From NCBI GenBank assembly GCA_026707285.1, contig JAPOXD010000028.1, positions 24,350-88,349 on the forward strand: DNA of 64,000 nucleotides, given 5' to 3'. A program made the translations under genes and the position numbers. Of this stretch, positions 11,931 through 12,805 are shown piece by piece; position 1 is the stretch's first letter, and each line of letters starts with the position of its first letter. The stretch comes from Chloroflexota bacterium. GTDB lineage: Bacteria > Chloroflexota > UBA11872. The notes under the pieces were generated by a model that made no database searches, was not told where the DNA came from, and worked only from the letters and a program-made list of their open reading frames with translations.

Positions 11931-12805
11931 GGCGGCGGGGGCGGCGCGGGAGTGTGCGTGAGTGCCGGCGTGGGCGTCTGCGCCGGCGCGGGCGTGGGAA
12001 GGGTGAATACCGGCAGGCCGGCCAGCGCGTCGCGCGTCACCGGGGCCTTGGCCGCGTCCGGGATGATGACGTTGCTCAGGCGCTTCACCTTGTCCGGCAC
12101 GTTTTGCAGGTTCACCCGGCCCACCGTCGTCCCCGGCGCCGGCACGTTCCAGACCACAAACACCGTCCGCTGCGTCCGCAGCAGCTGCAGACCTTGCGGG
12201 TTGCCATTGACCGCGCGCTCCTCGTAACGGATCGGCAAGCCGTAGAGATTCAGCCAATCGGGCTCGCTGAGGAATCGTTCTCTAATCGCCGCATTCCGCT
12301 CCAGCAGCGCCAGGTGATTTTGGGTGATGGTGGCGAAGTCGGCGCCACGATCGGCTTCGAGCACCTGATGGGGCGGAACGTTCGGCAACTCGACTTCCGG
12401 ATACCGGTTCGCCAGCACGTCGAGGGTGTTGTAGTAGTTCATGCGCTGCTTGCCGGGATCCCACTGCAGAATGACCTTTTGGAAGGCCTGCAGGGTGAAA
12501 GGGCCATTAGCCCAGCGCTGGCTGATGGGATAGCCGATGGCTTGCAGGTCGCGCTCGCGCGCGAAGTCCCACAGCGGCACGCCGTCCGCATTCGACACCG
12601 AGAAGCCGTCGTGGGGGTCGGCCGTATCCCCGCCGGTGATGGTAAAGAGACAGCCCTCGACCAGGGCGATGCCCCCGCATTCCAGCGCCGCCGCCGACGG
12701 CAACGCACCCAGCGCTGCCGTGGCTGCGATGGCAAGTCCTGCAAGCGCCATACGCAGAACTGGTCGCCGAACTTGCCGTCGGAGTGTTCGCACCATGCTC
12801 CCCAC
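10049..12805 (-). CDS. Secreted leucine-rich repeat protein: unknown N-terminal domain plus two plant-type LRRNT_2/LRR blocks
   Basis: 918 aa. Signal peptide, then a ~240-aa domain (CGGIALVEGC...NYYNTLDVLANRYPEVELPNV) and a PAPAQTPTP linker. Two blocks follow, each with an LRRNT_2-like cap (REALIRLYHATDGPNWANNTNWLSEAPLNDWYGVTT; RAVLIDFYHTTSGPGWTNNRHWLSEAPIGVWHGVTT) and 24-residue repeats LxxLxxLxLxxNxLSGxIPPELGxL. Ends in FTGCIP. Confidence 0.8.
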   Translation of the reverse strand: MGSMVRTLRRQVRRPVLRMALAGLAIAATAALGALPSAAALECGGIALVEGCLFTITGGDTADPHDGFSVSNADGVPLWDFARERDLQAIGYPISQRWANGPFTLQAFQKVILQWDPGKQRMNYYNTLDVLANRYPEVELPNVPPHQVLEADRGADFATITQNHLALLERNAAIRERFLSEPDWLNLYGLPIRYEERAVNGNPQGLQLLRTQRTVFVVWNVPAPGTTVGRVNLQNVPDKVKRLSNVIIPDAAKAPVTRDALAGLPVFTLPTPAPAQTPTPALTHTPAPPPPPPAAPPASDREALIRLYHATDGPNWANNTNWLSEAPLNDWYGVTTDIHKQVIELRLGSNALRGTIPPALGYLGKLKNLDLWQNQLHGVIPPEMRNLASLETLWLGDNQLQGTIPPGLGRLTNLWWLSLTSNQLDGGIPPELGNLRSLIFLELDSNQLTGSIPATLGHLDRLRNLDLGRNLLSGSIPPELGNLVRLEVLWLLVNQLSGSIPSELGRLRNLRQLYLSDNQLSGAIPPELGRLGKLERLSAEGNQLSGALPSNLGGLATLEELSLANNRLSGPIPPEIGRLSSLRKLWLEDNQLSGALPAELARIPFLTYLNLRDNRLSGSIPPALGDLGRLENLSLDNNHLSGAIPPELGRMASVQFLYLGNNQLEGKIPPELGALPELVGLYLAGNDRLTGCIADELWSIRGHDLRELDLWRCGISESAADRAVLIDFYHTTSGPGWTNNRHWLSEAPIGVWHGVTTNSAGQVTVLRLPRSELLGAIPPVLGRLAHLQTLDLSHNHLRGTIPPELAGLSNLGELRLGSNQLSGPIPPELGRLTNLRTLWLANNQLSGSIPPEFGSLAQLTFLSLDGNQLTGAIPAELAQLANLDDLKLGGSNQFTGCIPARLREVPYSDLGTLGLPFC

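Follow-up and report, generated by a model that had tools for sequence, protein, structure and literature searches.

On monoderm surfaces, cargo can be displayed by a module that binds a wall polymer non-covalently and is joined to the cargo through a spacer, as in Listeria internalin B, which combines leucine-rich repeats (LRRs) with GW modules, and in the SLH proteins. In Corynebacterium glutamicum, the MytA (PS1) LGFP domains interact with the peptidoglycan-arabinogalactan wall of that organism (PMC11299179), and in phage endolysins LGFP is listed among the putative wall-binding motifs (PMC3314691). LRR, ankyrin and TPR proteins are found among the eukaryotic-like proteins (ELPs) of sponge symbionts, and sponge Chloroflexi are recognised as having ELPs (PMC6306507). 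Here we analysed a 64,000-nucleotide stretch from a Chloroflexota bacterium (contig JAPOXD010000028.1; the whole stretch is called the window), in which two neighbouring genes encode LRR proteins, A and B, that begin with the same domain of about 215 residues. The evidence moderately favours the view that this domain is a Chloroflexota-specific, divergent module of the LGFP type that acts as a non-covalent anchor to a wall polymer of the cell envelope and lies outside the reach of Pfam.

Proteins A and B would follow the same display logic as internalin B and the SLH proteins, but the folds are unrelated and the order of the domains is reversed relative to internalin B. As LRR proteins they resemble the ELPs of sponge symbionts, and their closest homologs occur in metagenome-assembled genomes (MAGs) with bin names of a sponge style; however, we found no description of an N-terminal anchor domain shared by ELPs. 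The Lysin A proteins of actinophages (Gordonia, Nocardia and Rhodococcus) resemble the window family in that the module is joined to wall hydrolases. The phage arrangement of Amidase_2 with three LGFP repeats parallels that of the Chloroflexota protein P0185, in which Amidase_2 is combined with a window-type domain, and that of Chloroflexota Amidase_3, M23 and RlpA proteins with such a domain. In contrast to the window domain, the phage domains are canonical Pfam LGFP repeats and are C-terminal. Compared to the LGFP domains of MytA, the window protein scored under every Pfam threshold, comes from Chloroflexota and not from Actinomycetota, and belongs to a family in which the domain usually lies at the N-terminus; arabinogalactan-peptidoglycan should not be presumed to be its ligand.

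The two genes form a tandem pair on the minus strand with a gap of 144 bp. In both proteins a signal-peptide-like N-terminus, which ends A-A / L-E-C, leads into the conserved region; this spans about 215 residues and is followed by a Pro/Thr-rich linker and then by an LRR solenoid. A BLASTP alignment of A and B ran from the signal peptide through the LRRs. The N-terminal regions (11999-12688 and 14030-14719, minus strand) were 83% identical over 230 amino acids and 85% identical over a core of 216 residues, and the LRR parts were only about 50% identical. At the DNA level the two domain copies were 81% identical, with 61 synonymous and 32 non-synonymous codon differences. Because the differences were mostly synonymous and the DNA identity was 81%, the conservation is due to purifying selection and not to a recent duplication or gene conversion, and we count this point in favour of an anchor. 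Across paralogs and genomes, the identity of the domain was 70-89%.

A preliminary description of this DNA, made from the letters and translations only, had placed a conserved globular region of about 240 amino acids at 12085..12700 and about 14080..14700. The positions were essentially right, and the length was revised to about 215 amino acids. The identity of 83-85% and the confident model described below agree with its claim of a discrete region behind the signal peptide in both paralogs, and the Pro/Thr linker and LRR solenoid that it saw next were found again in the translation and in Pfam LRR matches. The motif that it spelled C-G-x-I-A-L-x-E-G-C is present and reads C-x-G-I-A-L-x-E-G-C. 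Instead of the two Cys pairs that it counted there is only one, L-E-C-x8-C at 12650-12685, and a diverse alignment showed that this pair is confined to the close clade and not conserved in the wider family.

Searches with Pfam-A and NCBIfam matched the full proteins A and B to LRR-related families only, and the isolated domain had no match in either library even at E <= 10, as expected from the earlier statement that no family could be recognised. The wall-binding families LysM, SH3b, SPOR, PG_binding_1, SLH, GW and CW_binding had no Pfam match in the window proteins or in 46 domain sequences (E <= 1-10). When the whole domain was compared with PDB sequences, nothing meaningful was found: Rumi and eS24 with the single sequence and SRC1 with a profile from a diverse alignment, A2, all had E >= 0.08. 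Plain BLAST of one half of the domain against the other showed no internal repeat.

The structure prediction depended strongly on the alignment. AlphaFold gave a predicted local distance difference test (pLDDT) score of 39 with an alignment of 28 close homologs only (A1), and a pLDDT of 94.5 with a predicted template modelling score (pTM) of 0.89 with A2, which holds 46 diverse sequences with a mean column identity of 44%. In domain numbering, the model starts with an N-terminal hairpin, which holds the Cys pair in the close clade (C43/C52 in the beta-hairpin of protein A). The hairpin is followed by unit 1, a helix and four strands (about 36-87), a helical insert of about 45 residues (about 88-131), unit 2, a helix and a sheet (about 133-195), and short C-terminal helices; protein A has the hairpin, unit 1, insert and unit 2 in this order. 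With hhalign, unit 1 and unit 2 aligned over their full length and in register (P = 0.0065), pairing G-Y-P with G-L-P, Q-A-F-Q-K-x-x-L-Q-W with R-A-Q-R-x-V-F-x-x-W, and N-x-x-D with N-x-x-D. Residues G52, P54, G150, L151 and P152 were invariant in the 46 sequences of A2. The conserved polar and aromatic residues were R58, Q67, Q70, K71, Q75, W76, N87 and D90 in unit 1 and R171, Q173, R174, W180, N196, D199 and K202 in unit 2. Since the units align in register, the invariant and near-invariant residues of the family form two equivalent sets. No evident catalytic residue set was seen in the two units, either in the conservation pattern of A2 or in the model.

Several independent comparisons pointed to LGFP. 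The top Foldseek match of the model in the PDB was 6swz, the C-terminal LGFP domain of C. glutamicum MytA (E = 1e-2), and a profile of unit 1 searched against 177,635 PDB sequences also placed 6swz first (E = 0.15), with several of its repeats matched in register. In the BFVD viral models, the top four Foldseek matches (E = 3e-3 to 2e-2) comprised one unnamed protein and three from Rhodococcus and Gordonia phages, which are lysin A or amidase proteins; these matches are given for whole proteins. Pfam LGFP was the sole family that recurred among the members, always weakly, with matches in 4 of 46 whole domains (best E = 0.012) and in 7 of 42 homologous unit-1 segments (best E = 0.0021). A reference profile was built from the repeats of three phage lysins, which Pfam confirmed as Amidase_2 with three LGFP repeats, and one MytA repeat. 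Against this profile, unit 1 reached an hhalign probability of 84% (P = 7.4e-6), and the reversed control gave P = 0.5. The likeness of unit 2 to LGFP is structural and otherwise runs via unit 1 only. Thus, a known wall-binding relative, a kind of result that by the preliminary description would count against its own reading, was found as a structural and HH-type match whose strength was moderate, not overwhelming.

In the model, the units share with LGFP a length of about 54 residues and an N-terminal helix followed by an antiparallel sheet of three to four strands. They also have a motif of the L-G-F-P type (IGYP and YGLP) and strands with G...Q-x-F...W, and unit 1 is in register with the repeats of MytA and the phages. 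The gathering score of LGFP (22 bits) was not reached, and the window domains had no match to this family at E <= 10. Because shape and motif agree and the Pfam threshold and the tandem array do not, we regard the domain as a divergent variant and not a plain LGFP member. Each of the comparisons is modest, but chance would hardly make them agree on a family with a single solved representative. A literature search that combined LGFP with Chloroflexi returned no papers.

The proteins to which the domain is attached gave the second line of evidence. Among 72 distant members, the identifiable partners were mostly wall-acting or envelope enzymes: DPBB_1 in 11 proteins with the source name "septal ring lytic transglycosylase RlpA family" and no SPOR domain listed, Peptidase_M23 in 6, the muramoyl-alanine amidases Amidase_2 or Amidase_3 in 3, sortases in 5, and Trypsin_2 (HtrA-like proteases) in 7. 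PDZ domains were also present in 4 of the 72, and other partners were GH5, GH10 and GH113 glycosidases, Peptidase_M1, PD40, LTD and a cupredoxin domain, among others. These partners are the typical clientele of a wall-targeting accessory module, and the domain is therefore not expected to be the catalytic part itself. In 15 of the 72 the domain was not N-terminal.

In the close clade, we collected 90 intact copies of the domain, in which the reading frame extends upstream of the domain by about 55 residues at the median (range 31-282) and beyond it by 120-1,750 residues. The tails fell into eight unrelated types: HExxH metalloprotease-like with P-W-[IV]-x-D-G-[IL] repeats (39 copies), LRR (21), RCC1 (10), acidic N-T-D-x-D-G-F-D-T-T repeats (8), clan-A-like glycosidase (7), PD40 propeller (2), GHL15 (2) and other (1). 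The preliminary description had proposed a look for the domain in other architectures, and the profile-search and clade members show a variety of them.

The tails also showed features of their own. In the HExxH tails, the commonest cargo (loci L012, L049 and 37 others), the motif recurs in many repeats of about 45 residues, and neither the HExxH region nor these repeats had a Pfam match. In eight copies (L059, L047, L037, L062, L063, L046, L060 and L045) the domain is followed by the acidic 11-residue array alone, and proteins P0012, P0019 and P0021 were also listed with the domain and this array. The acidic array had no Pfam match and may bind calcium.

All homologs with a source name were from Chloroflexota, and both Dehalococcoidia and Ardenticatenaceae were represented among them. 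With a word-indexed search, 95 proteins were recovered at >= 51% identity, and metagenome assemblies were the source of nearly all. A HMMER profile run over 1.84 billion cluster representatives gave 915 proteins with E <= 1e-3, of which 625 had E <= 1e-10; the distant members were 30-40% identical over almost the whole domain. A scan of one genome per GTDB species gave 130 encoding stretches, from which 75 loci were kept, all labelled "MAG: Chloroflexota bacterium". Chromosome OZ244789.1 carries at least 7 separate domain loci, and 13 loci hold 2-4 copies of the domain inside 12.7 kb. Several MAG bins of the close clade are named RHO, COS or CO36386, which would be the style of coral-reef sponge metagenomes; the apparently matching study is PMC8163846. 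Thus, the family is expanded in a Chloroflexota clade that appears to be sponge-associated. Many of the database homologs were gene fragments or frameshifted and came from short-read ENA assemblies (for example P0056, P0087, P0088 and P0094), and the copies on complete OZ-series chromosomes were intact. The fragmented homologs are probably errors of assembly or gene calling in a GC-rich, multi-copy family and not pseudogenes.

The anchor model combines the wall-binding role of LGFP in MytA and endolysins with the wall enzymes among the fusion partners, and both the partners and the MytA data suggest that the domain itself may bind the cell wall. In this model, A and B would be exported via Sec, as their N-termini suggest, and the signal peptide removed. 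The domain of about 215 amino acids is confidently predicted to fold as two LGFP-like helix-plus-sheet units bridged by helices, and the [ILY]-G-[YFL]-P turn of each unit, together with the conserved polar and aromatic residues, would bind a glycopolymer of the cell's own wall. The Pro/Thr linker would then cross the wall and project the LRR solenoid outward to an external ligand, presumably derived from a host. In the close clade, the anchor would have multiplied, and the cargo attached to it would include LRR, RCC1, metalloprotease-like and glycosidase regions, among others.

Several observations weigh against this model. MytA carries 3-5 head-to-tail LGFP repeats as a stalk (PF08310; 6swz, 6sx4). 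In contrast, the window domain has two units, an insert of about 45 residues and a hairpin, and not several head-to-tail copies in an extended array. Unit 2 alone was not significantly similar to the LGFP reference profile in hhalign. No cargo among the 90 close-clade copies is a peptidoglycan enzyme, and for this reason the ligand in the close clade need not be the cell's own wall. In addition, some sponge Chloroflexota (SAR202) have been reported to lack peptidoglycan synthesis genes (PMC6306507). The named matches of the window's aconitase were scattered across phyla and gave no placement of the organism within Chloroflexota. No peptidoglycan genes were seen among 30 other open reading frames of the window, although 64 kb is too short to be informative on this point.

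The cargo of the close clade bears most directly on a serious rival, in which the domain would be a carbohydrate-binding or adhesin-like module that directs its cargo to a glycan outside the cell, such as a polysaccharide of the sponge matrix, and not to the cell's own wall. Fusions with proteases and with glycosidases of the GH5, GH10, GH113 and GHL15 types would suit such binding to a host matrix, and so would the strong expansion, with tandem arrays, in the clade with sponge-type bins, where no cargo acts on peptidoglycan. The conserved surface-type R, Q, K, W, N and D residues would suit any carbohydrate ligand. However, the commonest identifiable partners in the wider family (RlpA-type transglycosylase, M23, Amidase_2/Amidase_3 and sortase) act on the own wall, homologs are spread over Chloroflexota MAGs of many unrelated projects, and the only related module that has been characterised binds the wall of its producer. 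On balance we judge binding to an external glycan unlikely, while taking it seriously.

The position of the domain could also suggest a sorting, secretion or folding signal, or a pro-domain, for a dedicated export or attachment machinery and not a ligand-binding anchor. The domain always stands directly after the signal peptide in the close clade, it is common to a polymorphic family, as sorting domains are, and some distant members are joined to sortases. We nevertheless find this explanation very improbable: the position varies among the distant members, 215 amino acids and two repeat units far exceed known sorting tags, and no conserved partner gene was seen beside the copies, the synteny with a UbiA-like gene being seen in only 2 of 75 related loci. 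Least probable of all is the assignment in the preliminary description, in which the domain was an effector or catalytic head and the LRRs a binding stalk. High conservation, a globular and confident fold, and the presence of Asp, Asn, Arg and Lys among the invariant polar residues would be compatible with a catalytic head. Against this assignment, the domain is attached, at either terminus, to many unrelated catalytic domains, each of them complete on its own. The two repeat units show no evident catalytic residues, neither fold nor profile similarity to a catalytic family was found, nor was a single conserved active-site residue set, and the sole structural and profile relatives are wall-binding LGFP repeats. 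The roles are thus probably inverted, with the N-terminal domain as the anchor and the LRRs as the working part.

The coordinates of the two genes, their parts and the neighbouring genes are listed in Table 1. Both signal peptides are putative, and an alternative internal start chosen by gene callers would shorten protein A to 900 amino acids. A lipoprotein reading of the first Cys was considered and rejected: in both A and B this Cys ends the sequence A-L-E-C, without a lipobox of the form [LVI][ASTVI][GAS]C, and at -1 to it 24 of 28 sequences across the close clade have E or D, whereas 3 have G and 1 has N. In contrast, the SBP genes of the same window carry the lipobox L-A-A-C. The LRRs of A and B are 24-residue repeats of the plant-specific type, L-x-x-L-x-x-L-x-L-x-x-N-x-L-x-G-x-I-P, with an N-cap (L-x-x-L-Y-x-A-T-x-G-P-x-W...N-W-L...W-x-G-V) and a C-cap (T-G-C-[IV]...P-x-C), and the LRR region of A consists of two complete capped blocks in series.

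Table 1. Features of the window, with positions counted from its first nucleotide.
Feature	Position	Strand	Basis or remark
Gene of protein A	10049..12805	minus	918-aa open reading frame
Putative signal peptide of A, residues 1-40	12686..12805	minus	basic n-region, hydrophobic core, A-A-A before L41
Candidate LGFP-like anchor domain of A, residues 41-256	12038..12685	minus	AF2 model, Foldseek matches
Unit 1 of A, residues 72-129	12419..12592	minus	helix, IGYP, then four strands with Q-A-F-Q-K-x-x-L-Q-W
IGYP motif of unit 1 of A	12527..12538	minus	
Unit 2 of A, residues 167-239	12089..12307	minus	helix, YGLP, strands with R-x-Q-R-x-V-F-x-x-W and N-x-x-D
YGLP motif of unit 2 of A	12233..12244	minus	
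Pro/Thr-rich linker of A, residues 257-300	11906..12037	minus	translation
LRR region of A, including stop codon	10049..11905	minus	Pfam LRR_1, LRR_4, LRR_8, LRR_14; alignment to B
Gene of protein B	12950..14809	minus	619-aa open reading frame
Putative signal peptide of B, residues 1-31	14717..14809	minus	GTG start overlapping the stop codon of the upstream UbiA-like gene
Candidate LGFP-like anchor domain of B, residues 32-247	14069..14716	minus	paralog of the domain of A
Pro/Thr-rich linker of B	13919..14068	minus	translation and alignment to A
LRR region of B, including stop codon	12950..13918	minus	Pfam LRR families
UbiA-family prenyltransferase gene, decaprenyl-phosphate phosphoribosyltransferase-like	14806..15714	minus	NCBIfam NF008977, 222 bits against a cut-off of 234
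HNH nuclease gene	18144..18668	minus	174 aa, stand-alone, beside an aconitase gene
Four consecutive open reading frames of about 600 aa	39505..46755	minus	
Three fused ABC exporters within this run	39505..44959	minus	ABC_membrane and ABC_tran
Fourth open reading frame of this run	44956..46755	minus	same size as the other three
Three tandem SBP_bac_5 paralogs	50136..57043	minus	Tat-like RRNLLRG signal
GHL10 protein gene	57191..58549	minus	a short way downstream of the SBP_bac_5 paralogs

The stop codon of the UbiA-like gene overlaps the start of protein B in the sequence GTGA, and this gene is possibly co-transcribed with B and A. As a conserved partner it was rejected, since the synteny recurs in only 2 of 75 related loci (L013 and L014), both probably orthologous positions. 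Decaprenyl-phosphate phosphoribosyltransferase makes the arabinan precursor in Corynebacteriales, and a UbiA-like neighbour is curious given the binding of Corynebacterium LGFP to arabinogalactan-peptidoglycan. Elsewhere in the window, the SBP_bac_5 paralogs are solute-binding lipoproteins anchored in the membrane, and in each of them KEVVKEV / VETVVTKEV repeats form a stalk of about 110 residues that separates the binding domain from the lipobox. Stalks of this length would suit a cell that has to span a substantial wall layer, which is circumstantial. Together with the GHL10 gene, the SBP_bac_5 genes suggest a locus for glycan or peptide uptake. In the IscB and Cas9d models, the 174-aa HNH protein matched nothing beyond the HNH segment (E = 2e-16).

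Little is understood of the envelope of Chloroflexota, a phylum that is abundant and for the most part uncultured. More than 900 protein clusters carry this domain without any annotation in current libraries, a gap that a Pfam-style model made from alignment A2 would close immediately. If the domain is a wall anchor, it would provide a simple sequence marker for surface-exposed Chloroflexota proteins and account for the retention of the clade's eukaryotic-like LRR and RCC1 proteins at the surface, where host cells could be met. The wall-binding fold of LGFP would then also be known from outside Actinomycetota and their phages. A bolder and less likely possibility is that a previously undescribed Chloroflexota-wide anchor has come to serve, in a symbiont clade, as the shared N-terminal handle by which a large and polymorphic family of surface proteins is displayed, with LRR, RCC1, metalloprotease-like, glycosidase, PD40 and acidic-repeat cargo at 7 or more loci per genome, often in tandem copies. 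If this is true, the domain would be a marker of the surface proteins that these uncultured bacteria turn towards the host, and it may bind some wall polymer that is not peptidoglycan, which would matter for the envelope architecture of Chloroflexota.

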